Shown: positions 30,554 through 45,299 of the stretch, one piece after another | Layout: every line of letters starts with the position of its first letter | Position numbering within the stretch: the stretch's first letter is position 1 | DNA from: a virus | Lineage: Duplodnaviria > Heunggongvirae > Uroviricota > Caudoviricetes | DNA: 50,006 nucleotides | Strand: one strand, 5' to 3' | Virus record (IMG/VR): IMGVR_UViG_3300025697_002467 | Made by a program: the position numbers and the translations under genes | The notes under the pieces: model-generated | What the model was told of the DNA's origin: nothing | Databases searched by the model: none | The model's input: the letters and a program-made list of their open reading frames with translations, nothing else

Positions 30554-30831
30554 ACGATAAAGACCTTGAAAATTTATGTTCAATCGAGCCGACTCAACCA
30601 TGTCCTGACTGTGGGCAAATTGCCCTTGCTACATGGGTAGACATTGGTTTTGGACCATACTCTCAGCAGGCTGGTCCTTATTCCTGTACTGAATGTGATT
30701 GGGTAGAGCCTTGTCCTTATGTGAGTCCTGAAAAATGTGATCGGTGTGTGAGTTTTGACACCTGTTACACTCGTTTGGAGAAAAAATATGTGAGTTTTGA
30801 CACCTGTTACACTCGTTTGGAGAAAAAATAA
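30550..30831 (+). CDS. zinc-ribbon protein
   Basis: CPDC..VDIGFG....GPYSCTECDW. Confidence 0.75.
   Translation: MNDKDLENLCSIEPTQPCPDCGQIALATWVDIGFGPYSQQAGPYSCTECDWVEPCPYVSPEKCDRCVSFDTCYTRLEKKYVSFDTCYTRLEKK
30747..30830. repeat. exact 42-bp tandem duplication at gene 3' end
   Basis: TGTGAGTTTTGACACCTGTTACACTCGTTTGGAGAAAAAATA x2. Confidence 0.95.
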
Positions 30832-34982: not shown

Positions 34983-35022
34983 TGGCTTAGTTTTCGTTTC
35001 CCGTGGGTTGTTGATGTAAGAA
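34983..35022 (+). promoter_or_regulatory. repeated motif, copy P6, upstream of cas operon
   Basis: TGGCTTAGTTT-TCGTTTC-CCGTGGGTTGTTG-ATGTAAGAA. Confidence 0.8.
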
Positions 35023-35077
35023 TGATGGTCTTAACTATACGGAGACAAATATTACTCTTAGAGTAATATAAAAAATA

Positions 35078-37885
35078 ATGGATAAATATCTTCAACTCAC
35101 TCAAAACATTGCAGTTTTGTCTGGTCTGTTTCATGACTGGATTAAAGCCTCGGAGTTTTTTATAACAAAACTCCGAAAAAACGAAATTGTCCAAGACCCT
35201 CTAAGACATGATTGGCTATCTGCCGTGTTTTTTTCTTCTATAGTTGGGAAACAATCCGACCTTGAATGGCTTCAACAACTTATTGATGGGAATATCCCAT
35301 CAGAATTTAAAATACCTGACAACCCATTAGAAAATCTCCCAGACACAGCTGCCGTTATATTTTGGTTAATTTTAACGCATCACAGATTACCGATAATTGA
35401 TCGATATAGAGGAAAAAACTGTGGGGATTTTCGGAATCTTTTTAAGTTTATTTCGGCTGAGTGGGGATACCAACATCTTAAAACCCAAGGCTTAGAGAAA
35501 TGTTTTAAATTCCCTAAAGGATTACCAGACCATTCCCCTATTTTAGTACAACACATCCAGAAAGCAGCTCAGGATTTATATAATTCTATAGGTACGCTGG
35601 AGGAAGTAATCCAAAAAAGAAATCTTCGTACAATCCTGACTCAAGCTCGTATGGCTCTCATGTTAGCGGATCATTTCCATTCGTCCCAAGATGCTGACCC
35701 AAACTGGCCGAAGACATATCCTGTTTTTGCTAATACGTACCGAGACACTGGTAAATTAAAGCAACGGCTTGATGAACACCTTGTCGGAGTAGCTAATCAG
35801 GCAGCCTTCAATGTGAAATTTCTGCATGAGCTTGTGGACATTAATCACAAACACCAAGCCTACCCGTCACTCGTTATTAAAAGCCCCGCTGAATTTCAAT
35901 GGCAAGAAGATGCTGTCACAGTTATCCGAAACCAGTATCAAAAAGGAGGCTTTTTTGGGGTCAGTATTGCCAGTACAGGAACAGGTAAAACATTAGGTAA
36001 TGCTAAAATTATGCAAGCTCTATCGAAAGACGGGAAAGGACTTCATTATACATCAGCCCTTGGACTCCGAACCTTAACCCTACAAACTGGATTGGAATAC
36101 CGTGACCGGATTGGATTAACGGATAAAGATATGGCCGTTCTGATTGGTTCTACTGACAACCTGAATCCATTCTATGCAGGTTCAGAATCTGAAGACTGTT
36201 TATTAGATAATGAATTGATTGGGGGCTTGGCAGAAGCAGGGTTATCCCCAGTATTACGAGATGAAAAGAGCTGTCGGTTTTTCCACACTCCTGTGGTGGT
36301 TTGTACTATTGACCATCTAGTTGGGGCTACGGAAACTAGAAAGGGTGGCCGGTATATCCTACCTCTCCTTCGATTGATGTCTTCTGACCTAGTTATTGAT
36401 GAAATAGATAATTTCTCAAATGGAGACTCCGTTGTTATTGGCCATTTAATCCATCTTGCTGGGATGTTAGGAAGAAAAGTCCTCATTTCCTCAGCCACAA
36501 TTCCTCCTGATATGGCAGAAGGGTATTTTAATGCTTATCAGGCCGGTTGGGAAGAATTTTGTAAAAACCAATCTGAAAACCCTGCTGTTAGTTGTTTCTG
36601 GACAGATGAGTTTGGAGCAACACTTGAATCTGTGGAGACCCTGACTGAGTATCGGAAATACCATCAAGAATTTGTTGAACAGCGTGTCATAGAATTAGCT
36701 AAGAAACCAATCAGACACCGAGTTAATATAGGGGAAATCCAACCTGTTAAAAATGAAAGCCGTAAAAAAACAAAAAACAGATTTTTTAAATCCATGACAG
36801 ATTGTTGTTTCGAATTACACAAGGACAATTACACTAAAGATGCCAAAACAGGTAAATTAGTGAGTATTGGTGTTATCAGAGTCAATACTATAAATACTTG
36901 TGTATCACTTACAAAACATCTCTTGAAAACCAAACTTCCACCTAATATCGATATCCGAACAATGGCCTACCACAGCCAACAAGTTATGGCCTTGCGTAAT
37001 GTTCAGGAGACTCATTTAGATAACGTGTTGAAAAGACACAAAGGTTCTCAAGCAATTTTTGATAACCCCATCATTAGAGAGCATGTAGATAATAGCTCGG
37101 CTGATCATGTGATATTTATTCTTGTAGCTACTTCAATCGAAGAAGTTGGTAGAGATCATGATTTTGATTGGGGTGTAATCGAACCATCCTCATTTCGGGC
37201 AATTATTCAGCTAATAGGACGTATATTACGACATAGGATGAAAAATGTTACACAACCTAATGTAACGATTATGCAGTATAACTTAAAAGGCTTGCTTGGA
37301 GACCGACTCCCTTTCAAACTCCCAGGCTATGAATCTACTCAGCATGTTTTCAATTCTCATGATATTACTAACCTCATTGATAAGGAGACTATCTGTGAAG
37401 GTTTGAATGCTACACCAAGAATTACCAAGAACACCCCCTTAGACCCCCAAAACAAGCTGGTAGACCTCGAACACACAATCACTCATGAAACCCTATCTGA
37501 TTACACCCAACAAGGGCCAGAGAGTCTTGCAGGCTGGGTTAAGACGTTTTGGTGGATGACTGCCACACCTCAAAAAATGAATAAGTTTCGGTCAGATTAT
37601 CCCTGCCTTCGAGTCTTCTTGATCCCCACGGATGATGGTCCTGTTTTTTTTGAAAAAACAAAAAGACATGGGATTCGAAAAATCGAATCCTTGTATGGAG
37701 TTAGGGTAAACAAGTCTGATGATGAAATGCCTTTGAAAAGATTATGGCTTCATAGAGATTTTGAAACTATTATTGATGGTTTGGACCTTATGATACACGG
37801 AGAAATCAACCTACCAACGTATGGTAAGGATAAAAATGAAATTCGTTATGAGTATTCTGACCAGTTTGGGTTAATTGCAAAATAG
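35078..37885 (+). CDS. cas3: type I-F Cas3 nuclease-helicase lacking the N-terminal Cas2 domain
   Basis: starts at the HD domain (GLFHDWIKAS, DPLRHDW, MLADH); Walker A ASTGTGKT; LGLRTLTLQTG; LVIDEID; SSAT; YHSQ; EVGRDHDFDW; QLIGRILRHR. Confidence 0.95.
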   Translation: MDKYLQLTQNIAVLSGLFHDWIKASEFFITKLRKNEIVQDPLRHDWLSAVFFSSIVGKQSDLEWLQQLIDGNIPSEFKIPDNPLENLPDTAAVIFWLILTHHRLPIIDRYRGKNCGDFRNLFKFISAEWGYQHLKTQGLEKCFKFPKGLPDHSPILVQHIQKAAQDLYNSIGTLEEVIQKRNLRTILTQARMALMLADHFHSSQDADPNWPKTYPVFANTYRDTGKLKQRLDEHLVGVANQAAFNVKFLHELVDINHKHQAYPSLVIKSPAEFQWQEDAVTVIRNQYQKGGFFGVSIASTGTGKTLGNAKIMQALSKDGKGLHYTSALGLRTLTLQTGLEYRDRIGLTDKDMAVLIGSTDNLNPFYAGSESEDCLLDNELIGGLAEAGLSPVLRDEKSCRFFHTPVVVCTIDHLVGATETRKGGRYILPLLRLMSSDLVIDEIDNFSNGDSVVIGHLIHLAGMLGRKVLISSATIPPDMAEGYFNAYQAGWEEFCKNQSENPAVSCFWTDEFGATLESVETLTEYRKYHQEFVEQRVIELAKKPIRHRVNIGEIQPVKNESRKKTKNRFFKSMTDCCFELHKDNYTKDAKTGKLVSIGVIRVNTINTCVSLTKHLLKTKLPPNIDIRTMAYHSQQVMALRNVQETHLDNVLKRHKGSQAIFDNPIIREHVDNSSADHVIFILVATSIEEVGRDHDFDWGVIEPSSFRAIIQLIGRILRHRMKNVTQPNVTIMQYNLKGLLGDRLPFKLPGYESTQHVFNSHDITNLIDKETICEGLNATPRITKNTPLDPQNKLVDLEHTITHETLSDYTQQGPESLAGWVKTFWWMTATPQKMNKFRSDYPCLRVFLIPTDDGPVFFEKTKRHGIRKIESLYGVRVNKSDDEMPLKRLWLHRDFETIIDGLDLMIHGEINLPTYGKDKNEIRYEYSDQFGLIAK

Positions 37886-37898
37886 AAAGGATTTGAAA

Positions 37899-39134
37899 AT
37901 GGATATTGAAATCCAGAAGTTTTTTGATGAACGTATCAAGAAAAAAATTAAGCATGGAAGTCAAAATATACCTGATGAACAGATGCCTGATTTTGAGAAC
38001 AAAATCAGGGAGAATTTTGTTTTGGAAACGTGGTTGCCAATAGCTGCGGAAAAAGCAAAATTCGTTACTCTCCGAACCCACTCAGGGAAAATGACTCACC
38101 CTAGTGCCCGGACATCTTCGTTCGTAGCCAAGAAACCCCAAGAAAATGATGGTTATCTTCGAACAGGGAATGTTTCTGTAGAAACAGATATGTGTGGAGG
38201 TGGGGCAGCCAGCCTAATCTATTATGCCTTCATGAACCTCAAGCTGACTGATGGGCAAACCATTTTAAGCCACCTACAAAAGTCTACTGACTATATCAAA
38301 CAGCAATTCGATATCCCTACAATGTCGTTCGATGACATCCAAAAAGGTTTTCTGGCTGTTTTTGATGAAACAGATGAAGACATTTATACTGATGGTTTAC
38401 TCCGAGAAGTATTTTTCCCAGTTGACGATGGTTATCATCTTCTGTCCATTACGAGCCCTTCTGGGATCATTTTTGCCCAAACTGACAAAATTGATAAAAT
38501 CCGTTTCTCAGAAGAAACTAAAGAAATCCGAAAACTTAAACGGCAGGGAAAACCGTCAGATAAAGGTTTTACCGAATTTTTTGACCTGACCATTGCCAAC
38601 TATGGAGGTTCTCAACCTCAGAACATCGGAGCTCTCAACAGCAAGTACAAAAAAGTATACTTGTTATCAGCTTCCCCACCTCAGTTTAAAAAACGGAAAA
38701 CCAAGCTACCCAAAACGAACTTTATGTCTATTCTGTGGGTAAAAGGCTTTCAGAGGTCTTTCCAGAAATTTCATACTCAGATAGCTATTAAAAAACAAAA
38801 CCAACATAGCCGTCTCCGACGTGATAACCATATTCGGTTCATTGTGGACCAAATCTCTAAACAGATGTGGGCAGTTCGACAGACTGAGCCTGGATGGTCT
38901 AATTCAGATACCTATAGATCATTGCCCAGACATCAAAAAATCTGGTTGGATCAACAGTATGCTGGCAACCGCTATGACAATCCCGATTGGATGGGCAAAG
39001 TAATTGCTGATATTAGCAGATGGTTCATCAACTCTTATAACACCCTGCTCGGTTCTGATGCAGAGTTGCTTGACGATACTGATTTGAGACATGTGGAAAC
39101 TATCATTCAAGAATGTGAGGAGGCCATCCGATGA
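37899..39134 (+). CDS. csy1: type I-F Cascade large subunit Csy1/Cas8f
   Basis: THSGKMTHPSA, GYLRTGNV, FFPVDDGYHLLS, NYGGSQPQNIGALNS, WSNS...LP.HQKIWLD; start re-called at MDIEIQ. Confidence 0.93.
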   Translation: MDIEIQKFFDERIKKKIKHGSQNIPDEQMPDFENKIRENFVLETWLPIAAEKAKFVTLRTHSGKMTHPSARTSSFVAKKPQENDGYLRTGNVSVETDMCGGGAASLIYYAFMNLKLTDGQTILSHLQKSTDYIKQQFDIPTMSFDDIQKGFLAVFDETDEDIYTDGLLREVFFPVDDGYHLLSITSPSGIIFAQTDKIDKIRFSEETKEIRKLKRQGKPSDKGFTEFFDLTIANYGGSQPQNIGALNSKYKKVYLLSASPPQFKKRKTKLPKTNFMSILWVKGFQRSFQKFHTQIAIKKQNQHSRLRRDNHIRFIVDQISKQMWAVRQTEPGWSNSDTYRSLPRHQKIWLDQQYAGNRYDNPDWMGKVIADISRWFINSYNTLLGSDAELLDDTDLRHVETIIQECEEAIR

Positions 39135-40024
39135 AAGACATTTTACTGATACCAAAGATACAAGCTGAAAGTGCCAATGCTCATTCCAGTCCATACTCCG
39201 GCGGATTTCCTGCTATGACGGCTTGGATGGGTTTTGCTCATTTGCTTGAAAGAAAACTTCAACAGACTTCTTATGCAGGGATCAAGTTTAAAAGTGTTGG
39301 GGTGGTGAGTCATGATTTTACTTTGAGAAATTTTAAGCACCCCAAGGATTTCTGTTCCGCTATTATTGGCAGACGTTTACCCCCTCAAAACCCTAGTCAA
39401 AAAGGGGCACCTCTGATTCCCGACTTAACCTGTGACCTAACGGTTTCTATAGTGTTGGAATGTTCAGGGATGGGGATGATAGATCATGAAGATTTCACCA
39501 ACACTATTAGGAAAATCATTTATAGTCTTAAATTGGCTAGTGGTGATATTGTAAACCTCCAAAAACCAGAAGTTCTCACCGTCCATGATGAGAAAAGCCA
39601 AAAAACCCTGCTCCGTCGGCTTATGCCAGGTAACTGTCTGATTGAACGTCGGGATCTGATACAGAAAGCTATGGAAAACGGCCAAGATGCCCTTGAAGCT
39701 GTTCTTTCTCATACTTGTATAGAACACTCATATAATGAGGTAACAGATAAGTGGGAAAGTAAACGGAAAACATCAGGTTGGCTGGTTCCAATTACTACAG
39801 GTTATCAAGGACTCACTAAATTGGGTCCTGCTGAAAACACACGAGATGCAAACGATACCCCACACCGATTTGCTGAAGCTATTGTAACATTATGTGAATT
39901 TATCATGCCATATAAAATTGTCGAACTTGATAACATGCTATGGCACTATCATTCTGATATGAACAAAGACCTTTATCTTTGTCAACAGAATAAACCTACA
40001 TACTCAGGAGAAAACTATGTCTAA
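39131..40024 (+). CDS. csy2: type I-F Csy2/Cas5f
   Basis: IQAESANA.SSPYS.GFPAMTAWMGFAH.LERKL; GWLVPITTGYQGL; HRFAE; L..MLWHY. Confidence 0.95.
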   Translation: MKDILLIPKIQAESANAHSSPYSGGFPAMTAWMGFAHLLERKLQQTSYAGIKFKSVGVVSHDFTLRNFKHPKDFCSAIIGRRLPPQNPSQKGAPLIPDLTCDLTVSIVLECSGMGMIDHEDFTNTIRKIIYSLKLASGDIVNLQKPEVLTVHDEKSQKTLLRRLMPGNCLIERRDLIQKAMENGQDALEAVLSHTCIEHSYNEVTDKWESKRKTSGWLVPITTGYQGLTKLGPAENTRDANDTPHRFAEAIVTLCEFIMPYKIVELDNMLWHYHSDMNKDLYLCQQNKPTYSGENYV

Positions 40025-41048
40025 AGTCAAAATCCCCGGGAATTTGTCATTCCGCAAGCGTTTAGAACCCTCAAAAGGAATCCTTTTTGGAACTTCCTGG
40101 GACAAACGCCGAGAAATTTGTGTCCCTTTAACCAATGAACTTATCACTGTCAGAGGTGGTAAAACTCACCACCAAAATTTCCCTGACAATCGTGAGAAAG
40201 GTGAGTCTGAGTTGGGTGATGCCAACATCCACACTCTTGATTCCTGTTTGTTGTCCAAGGATCACGATACCGTGCGTTTAACTTACACCTTGAAAGTTCT
40301 CAACGGTGTTGCCGGTATGGAAAGCTGTAATGACAAAGAATTCCTTAACCTGTTCGAGGAATGCTTAAAAGAAAAACTGGATACTGTTGGAGTGAAAGTT
40401 CTGGCCCATCGTTATGCCACCAACATTGCCAATGGTCGTCCTTTGTGGAAAAACCGTGAAGCTACCCATATTGAAACGGTCGTTCGTTGCCGTGGCAGTG
40501 AGACAGAGTGGGTTTTTGACGGTAAAGAAATCCCATTGCATACTTTCGATTATGAAAGTTCTGCATTGACAGGGCTAACTCAAGTCATTGAAGATGCTTT
40601 GTTAGGTAACACTGACCTTATCATTCTGGAAGTGTCCTCATACGCTTTGGTCGGTCAAGGTCAGCCGGTATTCCCCAGTCAAGAATTCATTCAGGATCAA
40701 GGGAATGGTTTCAGCTCGAAGAAAGACGGGAAGAAAAGCAAAGTTTTATACTTCCCCGAAGATGTAGCCGGCCTGCACCCGCAAAAAATCGGTAATGCCA
40801 TCCGTACTATTGATTCATGGTATGGAGACGGTGTCTCTCCGATTGCTGTGGAACCTTACGGTGCCCAGCCTACTTTCAATACCCATCACCGTAGCCCTTA
40901 CGAACAAAAGGACTTTTATTCCATGTTGGTGAAATTTGTGAACAAGGAAGAATTGACCGAATCCGAAGTTCATTACTTCATGGCCATGCTGGTCAAAGGT
41001 GGTGTGTTTGGTGCAGCCAAATCCAAGCCTAAACCCAAATCCAAGTAG
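40017..41048 (+). CDS. csy3: type I-F Csy3/Cas7f
   Basis: LSF.KRL.PS; RYATNIANGRPLWKNR; VFPSQEF; KSKVLY; HPQKIGNAIRTIDSWY; IAVEPYG; MAMLVKGGVFG. Confidence 0.97.
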   Translation: MSKVKIPGNLSFRKRLEPSKGILFGTSWDKRREICVPLTNELITVRGGKTHHQNFPDNREKGESELGDANIHTLDSCLLSKDHDTVRLTYTLKVLNGVAGMESCNDKEFLNLFEECLKEKLDTVGVKVLAHRYATNIANGRPLWKNREATHIETVVRCRGSETEWVFDGKEIPLHTFDYESSALTGLTQVIEDALLGNTDLIILEVSSYALVGQGQPVFPSQEFIQDQGNGFSSKKDGKKSKVLYFPEDVAGLHPQKIGNAIRTIDSWYGDGVSPIAVEPYGAQPTFNTHHRSPYEQKDFYSMLVKFVNKEELTESEVHYFMAMLVKGGVFGAAKSKPKPKSK

Positions 41049-41060
41049 GAGAAAAAGAAC

Positions 41061-41630
41061 ATGAAATACTACCAAGAAATTACGTTGATCCCTGACCCTG
41101 TTGGGATGCCCCTGAGTTATTTACAGCAACGTCTGTTCTATCAGGTTCATGCAGCCTTGGCTCGTGAACCTGGGGATAATTCCGTGGGTATATCTTTCCC
41201 TGATTACGATGGGGAAGGATGCCAACTGGGAAATAAAATAAGGTTGTTAGCTCCGACTGAGGATATTTTAAAAAACCTTCAACTTCGACACCTACTTCTC
41301 AGGTTAAGTGATTATTCTCATTTGTCAGATATCCGACAGGTGCCTGAGAAAATTGAAAGCTATGCTTTTTTTCGTCGGGTTCAACCGAAAACCAGCCTTG
41401 GCAGCATAGCTCGTCGAAAAGCTAGACGTGAAGGGATTACAGTTGATGAAGCCTTGAATCTTTTAGGACCACCTAAAAAAACACCCAAACTCCCCGCTGT
41501 TTCAATGGAGAGTAAAAGTTCAGGTCAACAATATCCTTTGTTTGTTTCCCGAGTTTTATCTGATGAGCCAGCTACGGGGTCATACAGTACGTATGGATTG
41601 AGTTCCACAGGTACTGTACCTTTATTTTAA
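41061..41630 (+). CDS. cas6f: type I-F Cas6f/Csy4 crRNA endoribonuclease
   Basis: MKYYQEITL.PD; QVH.AL; GISFPDY; LG.KIRL; RRVQPK; S.SSGQ.YPLF; YSTYGLS..TVPLF. Confidence 0.95.
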   Translation: MKYYQEITLIPDPVGMPLSYLQQRLFYQVHAALAREPGDNSVGISFPDYDGEGCQLGNKIRLLAPTEDILKNLQLRHLLLRLSDYSHLSDIRQVPEKIESYAFFRRVQPKTSLGSIARRKARREGITVDEALNLLGPPKKTPKLPAVSMESKSSGQQYPLFVSRVLSDEPATGSYSTYGLSSTGTVPLF

Positions 41631-41748
41631 TCAAAACAAAAAACCTAAGTGGTTATGGCTACTTAGGTTTTTTGCTTTTAACATTGGTAAAAACATGTAA
41701 TCATGTATAGGTCTTTGAAAACTCAATAGTTTTATGATTTATGCTCCT
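41631..41748 (+). promoter_or_regulatory. CRISPR leader
   Basis: AT-rich 118 bp between cas6f and first repeat; IHF-like CTTTGAAAACTCAATAGTTTTA at 41713-41734. Confidence 0.8.
41637..41674 (+). terminator. 14-bp perfect inverted repeat in the leader (cas-operon terminator or leader motif)
   Basis: CAAAAAACCTAAGT-ggttatggct-ACTTAGGTTTTTTG. Confidence 0.7.
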
Positions 41749-43680
41749 GTGAACTGCCGAGTAGGCAGCTTAGAATAACAGTTTGTACCGGTATTGTTTG
41801 GCAGATGTGTGAACTGCCGAGTAGGCAGCTTAGAATCTGCTCTGGAAATTTTGAGTATCCATACTGCCGTGAACTGCCGAGTAGGCAGCTTAGAATTGTT
41901 TGATTTTCTGACTCATTCCACCGAACGGGTGAACTGCCGAGTAGGCAGCTTAGAATTGTTTTGTCGAACCGACATTGATTTTTGAAAAGTGAACTGCCGA
42001 GTAGGCAGCTTAGAATTGGAGGTCAGAAAGGAAACGGTAACTATGTCTAGTTAACTGCCGAGTAGGCAGCTTAGAATTCAGACAATAATTCAAGAAAGTA
42101 TCAATTAAAGTGAACTGCCGAGTAGGCAGCTTAGAATTGGAAAACCATAGAATCAGAGAAGCTGGATTCGTGAACTGCCGAGTAGGCAGCTTAGAATACA
42201 TGTGTCGTAACCGTGTTCACGAAAAATTCGTGAACTGCCGAATAGGCAGCTTAGAATGGGTAACGATGACGTTGGAAAATGTAGACAGAGGTACACTGCC
42301 GAACAGGCAGCTTAGAATGACAGGTCGCATCGTGAATTTCTGGATCTGAAGTTAACTGCCGAGTAGGCAGCTTAGAATATTGATATTGATGCTAATAACG
42401 GCAGTGATGAGTGAACTGCTGAATAAGCAGCTTAGAATACAAGTCACAATATTGGATTAGCAAGCACATAGTTAACTGCCGAATAGGTAGTTTAGAATTT
42501 GCTTTTTTGTGACTGTACCTAGAACCTGTGGTTAACTGCCGAGTAGGCAGCTTAGAATCGAAGAACACGTCGGATCTCCCTGAAAATATCGTGAACTGCC
42601 GAACAGGCAGCTTAGAATAGTTCATCACACAAGGCCATTAGCTCGTCCACCGTTAACTGCTGAACAGGTAGTTTAGAATACAGGGAATCTGCGGACTTTG
42701 CCAACCTTGATGTAAACTGCCGAATAGGCAGCTTAGAATTGGTCAACCGAACTACACAAAATGTCTTTTGCATGAACTGCCGAGTAGGTAGTTTAGAATT
42801 GTCCTGAAATGCCTGTTGTCACAAATGAGATGTTAACTGCCGAATAGGCAGTTTAGAATTATGTGGGATCAAAGCTCTCCCAAGGGTGGGTGTTAACTGC
42901 CGAGCAGGCAGCTTAGAATCATGTATAAGTTGCTCTCAATCCACAATTTAGGTGAACTGCTGGATAAGTAGTTTAGAATAATTTAATCAGGTCATTCATA
43001 ACGGCCATTTTAGTTAACTGCCGAATAGGCAGCTTAGAATTCTTGTTGGATGCAAGTGTCTTATCAACATTTGTTAACTGCCGAATAGGCAGCTTAGAAT
43101 TGAGACAGATCCCAAAGCTGAAATCGAATCCAGTGAACTGCCGAACAGGCAGCTTAGAATAAGGAACAGAAGCAGCTAGTTCAATTGGTACTGTTAACTG
43201 CCGAACAGACAGCTTAGAATGAAATTCCTTCATCCACATATTCGGCAACTATGTGAACTGCCGAACAGGTAGTTTAGAATTTTATGGAACTCACTACGAC
43301 CGCCAGACCGGATCGTGAGCTGCCGAATAGGTAGTTTAGAATCTATTGACACCAAAGCAGATTGAATCCGCGGGAACTGCCGAATAGGCAGCTTAGAATG
43401 ATGAAACTCTATGACGAGGAACGAGTGGAGGGTGAACTGCTGAATAAGCAGCTTAGAATACAATCGAATCAATGCCGTCTAAAAGCTCCGCAGGAACTGC
43501 TGGATAAGCAGCTTAGAGTTCGTATGGAGTAACCGTGAAAAACTGCCGGACAGGTAGTTTAGAATTTAGAAATAAGGGTGTGGCATTGAAGCCGAGTGAA
43601 AACTGCCGAATAGGCAGCTTAGAATAAGCACATCAGCTATGTTAAACCGCACTGCGTGAACTGCTGAATAAGTAGCTTAG
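41749..43680 (+). CRISPR. type I-F CRISPR array, 33 repeats / 32 spacers
   Basis: 28-bp consensus GTGAACTGCCGAGTAGGCAGCTTAGAAT (CTGCC/GGCAG stem); spacers mostly 32 bp (range about 18-34); uniform at leader end, heterogeneous distally; last repeat truncated at GCTTAG. Confidence 0.99.
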
Positions 43681-43717
43681 CTTAGTTTCCAAAAGTTGTG
43701 GGTTGTTGGGGTAGAAG
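43680..43717 (+). promoter_or_regulatory. repeated motif, copy P7, fused to the last CRISPR repeat
   Basis: GCTTAGTTT-CCAAAAG-TTGTGGGTTGTTG-GGGTAGAA. Confidence 0.85.
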
Positions 43718-43751: not shown

Positions 43752-45299
43752 ATGGCCAAAACAATCATTGATAGTGTTACTTTAAATTTTACTGACCTTA
43801 CCGGTGCCAAGACAGGCTGTACCAAACTCGGTTCCAACAAATTCTGGAAGGGCTGGGTTGAAGACCTTGGAGACGGCACAGGCAATTTCGAGTGTTGCTG
43901 GGGTGCTACAGGCACACCAGGTAAAGACACCGGAAGCAAACGAGGTATTGACCTTGATGATGCCCAAACCTTGCTCAATAAGAAAGTTAAATCAAAAGTA
44001 AAAAAAGGTTATACCCTCCTTGAAGTTCGTTCCGATGAGGAAGAGGTGGCCAAGGCTGCTGACAACGGTGTAAACCTCACTGCTGACAAGAAAGCCCCCA
44101 AAAAGAAAAAAGCTGTCAAGAAATCAACTTTCAATCCTGCTATCGGAAACTTGCTGGCTACCATCTATAATGAAACCAGCCGTGTTGTCACAGCAGGTCT
44201 TTCCTCTCAGGCTGGCTCATCTGCTGATAACCCTATAGGTAACCTGTCTGATGCCCAGTTAGACGTAGGTGGTGGCATTTTGGACGATATAGAGGCATTC
44301 CTGACACAGGAACTTGGCCATGAAGACACAGCTAACCGTGTTCAAACCTTGGCTTTGTCTGCTGATGGTGTACCTTCTGATGGTGTCATTGATTTGACTA
44401 ATCAGTACATGTCGAATGTTCCGAGAGAAATTGACCGTTCACAAAGAGGTAGAGGCAACCTGCATCGTCTGGTTATTTCATCCTTTGAACGCTTGGAAGA
44501 GCAACGAAAGTTTTTACAGTTGCTTCGTGATGCTCACCTGACCAAAGGTGTCTTTAAAGCTGCTGCTAATGCTTCTACAGGTGGTAAAGAACAGATTTGG
44601 TATGAAGGCCTCAATTGCCTTATCGAATTGTGTGAGTCTGGATCAGCCGAATTCAAGAAAGTGTCAGACATATTCAACAACAACCAATCTCGTAAAAACC
44701 AGAACTGGTTCAGTGGTGGACGTTCTACTCTCCGCTTGAAACGGATTTTCAAGTTCACTCGTAATGGTACAGACAAACAGTTTGCCAAGTATGCTAAAGA
44801 GATGGCTTCCAAGCCCAATGCAGTCGGCAATATTTTTGCTTGGCACGGCACACGTACTGAGAACCTTCTCGGTATCAGTAAAACTGGCCTCTTGATGCCT
44901 GAAAACTTGCCTCGTGGTATCCACGTATCAGGTAAAGCTTTCGGCAAAGGGATTTATCACGCCCCTGATATTTCAAAAATAAGAACCATTCACGGTGTGC
45001 AAACAGATGGTACGAATGGAGCTTTGAAGTCTATGAACTATACCTCTTCAAGGGGAGCTTATTACGGTTCAAATAACACTTCAAATTCGGCCTTCATGTA
45101 CCTGCAGGAAGTTGCTTTAGGTAACGGTGATGTTCATACAGCCCCTTGCTGGGACAAACACCGTCCGAATAACTACCCGAAGAACGATTTCATTTATGCA
45201 GCAGCCGGCGGTTGTAGCACGTTATCCCATGATGAATTGGTAACTTTTTCTCAGGATGCTCAAATATTCCGCTATTTGCTTGAGATTGAAGCAAGATAA
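43752..45299 (+). CDS. WGR + PARP-regulatory + PARP catalytic domain ADP-ribosyltransferase
   Basis: WGR: SNKFW...WGATG; PARP_reg: IGNLSDAQL..G..IL...LTNQYMSNVP; catalytic H-Y-E: AWHGTR, GKAFGKGIY, KSMNY, EVALG, HDELVTF..Q..RYL. Confidence 0.92.
   Translation: MAKTIIDSVTLNFTDLTGAKTGCTKLGSNKFWKGWVEDLGDGTGNFECCWGATGTPGKDTGSKRGIDLDDAQTLLNKKVKSKVKKGYTLLEVRSDEEEVAKAADNGVNLTADKKAPKKKKAVKKSTFNPAIGNLLATIYNETSRVVTAGLSSQAGSSADNPIGNLSDAQLDVGGGILDDIEAFLTQELGHEDTANRVQTLALSADGVPSDGVIDLTNQYMSNVPREIDRSQRGRGNLHRLVISSFERLEEQRKFLQLLRDAHLTKGVFKAAANASTGGKEQIWYEGLNCLIELCESGSAEFKKVSDIFNNNQSRKNQNWFSGGRSTLRLKRIFKFTRNGTDKQFAKYAKEMASKPNAVGNIFAWHGTRTENLLGISKTGLLMPENLPRGIHVSGKAFGKGIYHAPDISKIRTIHGVQTDGTNGALKSMNYTSSRGAYYGSNNTSNSAFMYLQEVALGNGDVHTAPCWDKHRPNNYPKNDFIYAAAGGCSTLSHDELVTFSQDAQIFRYLLEIEAR

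Follow-up and report, generated by a model that had tools for sequence, protein, structure and literature searches.

A type I-F locus on a phage-like contig

The window, by which we mean the whole stretch of 50,006 nucleotides analysed here, is part of a contig of 402,136 bp and has a GC content of 0.41. Judging by its size, its 0.1-micron fraction and its gene content, this contig appears to be phage-like; PHROGs matches were obtained for 2/10 window proteins, both of unknown function. Identical Csy3 genes are present in JGI samples 3300031227 and 3300025669, which come from the lower zone of Ace Lake (Antarctic), 0.1-micron fraction, sampled in 2013 and 2008, respectively (PMC7416419 supplement). 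We considered whether the contig is the published 528-kb Ace Lake phage CL24 and rejected this identity, the two being separate contigs in one sample. Ligase and Csy3 matches were uninformative as to the host. The locus comprises the following genes:

35078..37885, + strand: Cas3f, HD nuclease and helicase (TIGR02562, 631 bits for a cut-off of 566)
37875..39134, + strand: Csy1/Cas8f, full-length (Pfam, above cut-off)
39131..40024, + strand: Csy2/Cas5f (Pfam, above cut-off)
40017..41048, + strand: Csy3/Cas7f (Pfam, above cut-off), about 44% identical to its closest relatives
41061..41630, + strand: Csy4/Cas6f (Pfam, above cut-off)

In Cas3f, the HD (residue 19), GTGKT (Walker A) and DEID (Walker B) motifs are all present, and an N-terminal Cas2 domain is absent, TIGR02562 being aligned from profile position 115 at residue 11. 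The above-cut-off matches of Csy1-4 are to PF09611, PF09614, PF09615 and PF09618; Csy4/Cas6f has a histidine, His30, at what we take to be the position of the catalytic one. Type I-F1 features found at the locus are cas8f, cas5f, cas7f and cas6f, Cas3f, and the repeat/spacer architecture described below. No gene of the locus matched cas1, a result that covers the window, and another part of the 402-kb contig may carry one; the gene upstream of cas3f, where a type I-F1 locus would carry cas1, is a DEDD exonuclease. The locus is a complete interference module without an adaptation module of its own within the window.

Two other features were noticed in this region: a copy of a motif of about 40 bp, present in about 19 copies across the window, lies just upstream of cas3 (34983-35031), and an exact 42-bp tandem duplication occupies 30747-30830.

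A long and static CRISPR array

The cas genes are followed by a CRISPR array on the same strand:

41631..41748, + strand: candidate AT-rich leader, between cas6f and repeat 1
41749..43683, + strand: type I-F CRISPR array, 33 repeats of 28 nt and 32 spacers

The repeats have a 5-bp stem and a 5-nt loop, and the spacers are 32 nt long; repeat 25 is the exception to this architecture. Repeats 1-8 are near-uniform and the later ones degenerate. Position and repeat uniformity together suggest that 41631..41748 is the leader; since the first eight repeats are near-uniform and the later ones drift, the left end would be the leader end, and spacer 25 would belong to the older half. Six assemblies reach the array, one of which may be the window's own source; they have the same spacers from the leader end wherever it is covered, and one has all 32.

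In salt-lake contigs, two spacers foreign to the array (30 and 27 nt as listed) lie between similar repeats; they may belong to a second array, to a related phage or to a host array. The last repeat runs directly into a copy of the motif mentioned above (43656-43717, about 40 bp, about 19 copies in the window), and directly after the array comes a three-domain protein, WGR + PARP_reg + PARP, at 43752-45299. Elsewhere, a three-repeat type I-F-like mini-array lies just upstream of the terminase gene of an unrelated 12-kb viral contig (L046:10826-10961, minus strand), which has no cas genes among its ORFs.

Repeat 25 and the predicted processing of crRNA 25

The features considered here are those that would delimit crRNA 25:

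43193..43220, + strand: repeat 25, cleavage of which would yield the 5' handle of crRNA 25
43221..43252, + strand: spacer 25 (32 nt), between repeat 25 and repeat 26, antisense to a serine recombinase beta-strand/loop segment
43253..43280, + strand: repeat 26, with an intact Cas6f hairpin, 3' end of crRNA 25

The stem of repeat 25, CTGCC/GACAG, has a C-A mismatch, and the canonical hairpin is not predicted. Folded alone, repeat 25 has a predicted MFE of -1.8 kcal/mol (z -0.46), to be compared with -11.2 kcal/mol (z -6.4) for repeat 26 and -8.9 kcal/mol for repeat 1. In its context, the canonical hairpin has a predicted probability of about 0 at both 37 and 4 °C; instead, seven bases of repeat 25 are predicted to pair with the spacer. 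Csy4 processing is reportedly nearly all-or-none and strongly dependent on flanking structure (bioRxiv 10.1101/2020.11.15.384107). As repeat 25 is predicted to lack the Cas6f hairpin and to pair with the spacer, crRNA 25 is probably poorly made or still fused to crRNA 24. One has to bear in mind that Cas6f, on binding, can induce even a weak hairpin to form. At 37 °C and in context, the hairpin is also predicted to be lost in repeats 11 (42351-42378), 16 (42652-42679), 20 (42892-42919), 30 (43492-43519) and 33 (43656-43683), and crRNA 15 is among the guides that these repeats would affect.

Spacer 25 resembles a segment of serine recombinase genes

The preliminary description of this DNA had the coordinates of the spacer, its number (25 of 32) and its translation right: its reverse complement reads IVAEYVDEGI followed by TC, which begins a Ser codon. 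The Y/F-x-D-x-G-x-S-G segment is thereby present together with the preceding hydrophobic strand, its final Gly lying outside the spacer. This segment is the conserved D-x-G-x-S-G loop, which reads YTDAGFSG in TP901-1 integrase (PDB 3bvp) and EYVDxGISG in Pin-like proteins; we discarded the idea that it is the catalytic-serine motif, as YxRxS lies about 30 residues upstream.

A peptide of 11 residues is too short for Pfam or protein searches. Searched with any codons, it had a single match in 596 Gb of GTDB genomes, inside a 205-residue PF00239 protein, for about 0.01 matches expected by chance (a rough estimate from residue frequencies). Degenerate scans gave five matches to EYVDEGISG in viral contigs and 23 to [VA][AED]EYVDEGIS+G in metagenomes, and the best plasmid blastn match, in frame and with an exact core of 23 nt, is annotated as a recombinase. 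The 30 natural motif matches (29 distinct proteins) all fall in serine recombinase catalytic domains, PF00239 being confirmed for 17 of them, one being assigned by its record annotation and the others by eye; the YxRxS and DRxxR catalytic motifs are present in the homologous matches where the gene is complete.

A second line of evidence came from a profile built on 119 small serine recombinases, which had been chosen by their residues 62-150 alone, a region outside the motif. Spacer 25 scored 26.7 bits in the right column of this profile, close to the member median of 26.3, and the next spacer of the array reached 12.6. None of 40,000 natural 32-mers and none of 40,000 shuffles attained 26.7 bits; the extrapolated P for the whole array is about 2e-5 to 7e-5, with a subfamily chosen post hoc. 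Both the motif matches and the family profile bear out the initial reading of the spacer as part of a serine recombinase gene.

One has still to weigh a chance resemblance, in which the spacer would have an unrelated origin and a likeness to the motif would have arisen by accident in one of 192 reading frames. Only 11 residues are concerned, the family was picked after the peptide had been seen, and an ungapped profile of one large-integrase subfamily did not score spacer 25. This last test is uninformative, since that subfamily has a two-residue insertion that an ungapped score cannot cross; moreover, every one of the 30 database matches is a serine recombinase and none of the 80,000 nulls attained the profile score of the spacer. 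We thus hold a chance resemblance to be very improbable, and a derivation of spacer 25 from a serine recombinase gene, as judged from these comparisons of sequences, to be very probable. As a member of PF00239, it is read from 32 nt only, from which neither the subfamily nor the carrying element can be told.

Searches for a protospacer

The database search that had been suggested for the spacer was run, and it brought up homologous recombinase genes but not a protospacer. Exact spacer 25 had no match in GTDB genomes, viral contigs, metagenomes (with a non-T 5' base) or E. coli genomes, and phage records gave only short matches at chance level. Synonymous and near-synonymous scans returned homologues identical at 21-27 of 32 bases, none of them a plausible protospacer; the best match anywhere is 27/32 and the best in a viral contig 26/32. 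With up to three mismatches, nothing was found in about 1,190 genomes around one Desulfobulbaceae and one Methylobacter genome, a choice that follows Csy3 similarity alone and may not include the host. In four salt-lake runs, no non-array contig over spacer 25 was among the matches listed, where short matches can escape, so that this is not evidence of absence. No RNA data set was among the carriers listed. Within the window, we found neither a serine recombinase gene motif nor a self-target of spacer 25. The 21-nt seeds of spacers 1 and 2 likewise had no protospacer match in the viral collection, which does not include this phage either. With no protospacer in the collections searched, the target first proposed, a prophage, ICE or satellite like PLE, is not supported.

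These searches bear on the possibility of another target, a temperate phage or prophage that competes with the huge phage and carries a serine integrase or invertase; the guide would then serve to clear such rivals from the host that both share, as has been proposed for the arrays of huge phages. Spacers of huge phages directed against other phages, in systems without Cas1/Cas2, are described by Al-Shayeb et al. (2020, PMC7162821); here, five viral contigs carry EYVDEGISG recombinases and the peptide of spacer 14 (see below) occurs in a viral methyltransferase. Against it, spacer 25 matches viral contigs at 26/32 at best, no viral match came up for the 21-nt seeds of the first two spacers (in a collection that also lacks this phage), and spacer 15, which is hsdS-like, indicates cellular or island DNA. 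We consider a competing phage rather unlikely as the target.

The PAM and the recognition residues of Csy1

The preliminary description had reasoned that a Gly codon following the Ser codon forces C at position -2, and this codon logic is correct (112/113, 107/109 and 145/149 family members). The further argument for a CC PAM adds little, two of the three PAM-recognition residues being changed in this Csy1 and TCG being rare. In P. aeruginosa Cas8f, position -2 is read by Asn111 and position -1 by Asn250, with Lys247 acting as the wedge (bioRxiv 10.1101/453720). Aligned with solved Csy1 chains, with our own mapping of the residues, the Csy1 of the locus (37875-39134) has GGAA for GNAA and GGSQPQN for GGTKPQN, hence Gly at the Asn111 position and Gln at the Lys247 position, with Asn250 kept. 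The -2 reader and the wedge would thus be changed and the -1 reader kept, and the system may read a non-CC PAM; the PAM of ICP1, for example, is T(-2)C(-1) (PMC10161043). CC would need, for its -1 position, a TCG Ser codon, found in one of 31 homologous genes; none of these points refutes targeting, because acquisition selects for the PAM. The PAM is not countable as support for the target of spacer 25. What this Csy1 recognizes, given its changed residues, is a direct biochemical question.

Which recombinase and which carrier

The term "integrase", first used for the target, is not borne out, as the motif is as frequent in small Pin-like resolvases as in large integrases, which have Recombinase (PF07508) and zinc-ribbon (PF13408) domains and about 450-600 residues: about 17/30 motif matches are of the small Pin-like resolvase/invertase type and about 13/30 of the large type. 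In scans without length bias, the exact peptide occurs in two small proteins and one large one (L030), and length-restricted searches added four small ones. On this comparison, a source in a small Pin-like resolvase/invertase is at least as likely as one in a large integrase.

One small recombinase with the exact peptide has a tyrosine integrase, an HTH_17 gene and IS transposases as neighbours; elsewhere, the neighbour is an ArdC gene or a large serine recombinase. The small carriers of the exact peptide thus seem to sit in island or plasmid settings, the class of element being read from homologues in other habitats. In an Acidobacteriota MAG, two serine recombinases adjoin (L013:5499-7948, minus strand), a small Pin-like one being directly followed by a large one. 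Serine recombinases of about 200 residues with an unusual segment, (T/L)LELSRLGRS, replacing DRxGRS (L022-L025, L031, L034 and L036-L039) form a coherent group from several metagenomes.

The large-type matches are those that would fit an active counter-defence of the ICP1 kind, aimed at a PLE-like satellite or at an anti-phage island that excises by means of a large serine integrase. PLEs encode large serine recombinases, and those ICP1 spacers whose targets are known are specific for PLEs (PMC9638900, PMC9040626); about 13/30 motif matches are large recombinases, L030 has the exact peptide, and the array may be enriched in defence-type targets. No satellite was found, however, and ICP1 adapts with Cas1 and Cas2-3, whereas the present locus lacks a Cas2 domain, shows no cas1 within the window and has an array that does not change, with spacer 25 in its old half, behind a broken repeat. 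We see such an active counter-defence as distinctly improbable.

Spacers 14 and 15 and the composition of the array

Two other spacers gave readable matches:

42559..42590, + strand: spacer 14, antisense to DIFREIRRVLR
42619..42651, + strand: spacer 15, whose best plasmid match is an hsdS gene (weak, E 3)

DIFREIRRVLR has one match in viral contigs, inside a beta-class DNA methyltransferase. The flank of a spacer 14 homologue (23/32, not a protospacer) equals a TC PAM. A reading of spacer 22 as PIN had no supporting plasmid match. Spacers 14, 15 and 25 are all antisense and all end two bases into a codon, three being too few to test. Taken together, these matches suggest that the three spacers point to mobilome or defence-island DNA; one has to remember the ascertainment, as peptides reveal only those spacers that lie on conserved motifs.

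In a further reading, the array would be a standing anti-defence library, in which the huge phage keeps guides against conserved motifs of host defence-island genes and works with a relaxed PAM. The library would span a serine recombinase, hsdS, a DNA methyltransferase and perhaps PIN nucleases, and one cut-only type I-F system would destroy many different resident islands or satellites. If true, this would be a second and broader case of phage CRISPR counter-defence, beyond ICP1/PLE. The ascertainment bias weighs against this reading, and we regard a standing library as improbable.

Proposed origin of spacer 25

We give about an even chance to the following: spacer 25 would be an old guide whose source was a serine recombinase gene carried by host-resident mobile DNA. 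The source element would be a genomic or defence island, a transposon, a plasmid or an ICE in the host of the phage, and acquisition would have depended on Cas1-Cas2/3 supplied by an ancestral locus or by a host. Provided that crRNA 25 is made, the Csy complex of the phage would bind matching DNA and Cas3f would shred the element processively; the whole element would be killed, the recombinase being only the address. This guide is possibly weakened, owing to the mismatch in repeat 25. The points in favour of this reading are the family origin of the spacer, the island or plasmid settings of the small recombinases with the exact peptide, the matches of spacers 14 and (weakly) 15, the static array, the missing Cas2 domain, the want of any exact or synonymous match in the viral contigs searched and the mismatched repeat 25. 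Against it, both serine recombinases and methyltransferases are also common in temperate phages, and viral signals do exist: the five viral motif matches and the viral methyltransferase match.

Several of these points would also be accounted for if the array had come with the cas cassette from a bacterial donor, spacer 25 then recording a mobile-element threat to that donor and being unselected in the phage. The window holds no adaptation genes, the array is static and its repeats are degenerate; in general, spacers against recombinase- and methyltransferase-bearing elements fit a bacterial array. On the other side, Csy3 is about 44% identical to its closest relatives, indicating long separate descent, and the intact interference genes and near-uniform repeats 1-8 suggest continued use and later acquisition. 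Inheritance from a donor is in our view quite improbable.

Comparison with known systems

A spacer against a mobile element bearing a recombinase is by itself ordinary CRISPR biology; its interest here is that it is one of three array spacers indicating genes of the mobilome or of defence. Phage CRISPR directed against host defence elements has its well-tested case in ICP1/PLE; meeting it again in a huge phage unrelated to ICP1 would tell whether this strategy is a general one. A limited search of the literature brought up no paper in which phage spacers, outside ICP1, are directed at recombinases or defence islands. What is known is that huge phages have CRISPR systems without acquisition genes, with spacers against phages and host DNA (PMC7162821), and the tested model is ICP1 against PLE.

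The locus resembles that of ICP1 in that a phage-type genome carries both an array and the type I-F interference genes, and a guide against a serine-recombinase element would fit, PLEs encoding large serine recombinases (PMC9638900). It differs in that ICP1 has kept Cas1 and Cas2-3 and adapts, whereas Cas3f here is without Cas2 and cas1 is absent from the window; ICP1 also has compact Csy1/Csy2 and proven PLE targets, in contrast to the full-length Csy1, the long static array and the candidate target of the present locus (PMC9040626, PMC9638900, PMC10161043).

With the CRISPR systems of huge phages (Al-Shayeb et al., 2020, PMC7162821), the contig shares a very large genome, the lack of Cas1/Cas2 (here, within the window) and spacers that may be directed at other phages or at bacterial DNA. 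The arrays described there are mostly short (a median of six repeats) and the term "type I-F" does not appear in the text searched, whereas the present array has 33 repeats and is accompanied by a full I-F interference set.

The nearest likeness in habitat is CL24 (Panwar et al., 2020, PMC7416419), which also comes from the lower anoxic zone of Ace Lake and the 0.1-micron fraction, and which carries cas genes without cas1/2/4 and spacers without viral matches. CL24 is 528 kb long, with a GC content of 0.56 and a putative type I-C system, whereas the contig described here has 402,136 bp, a GC content of 0.41 in the window and a type I-F system.
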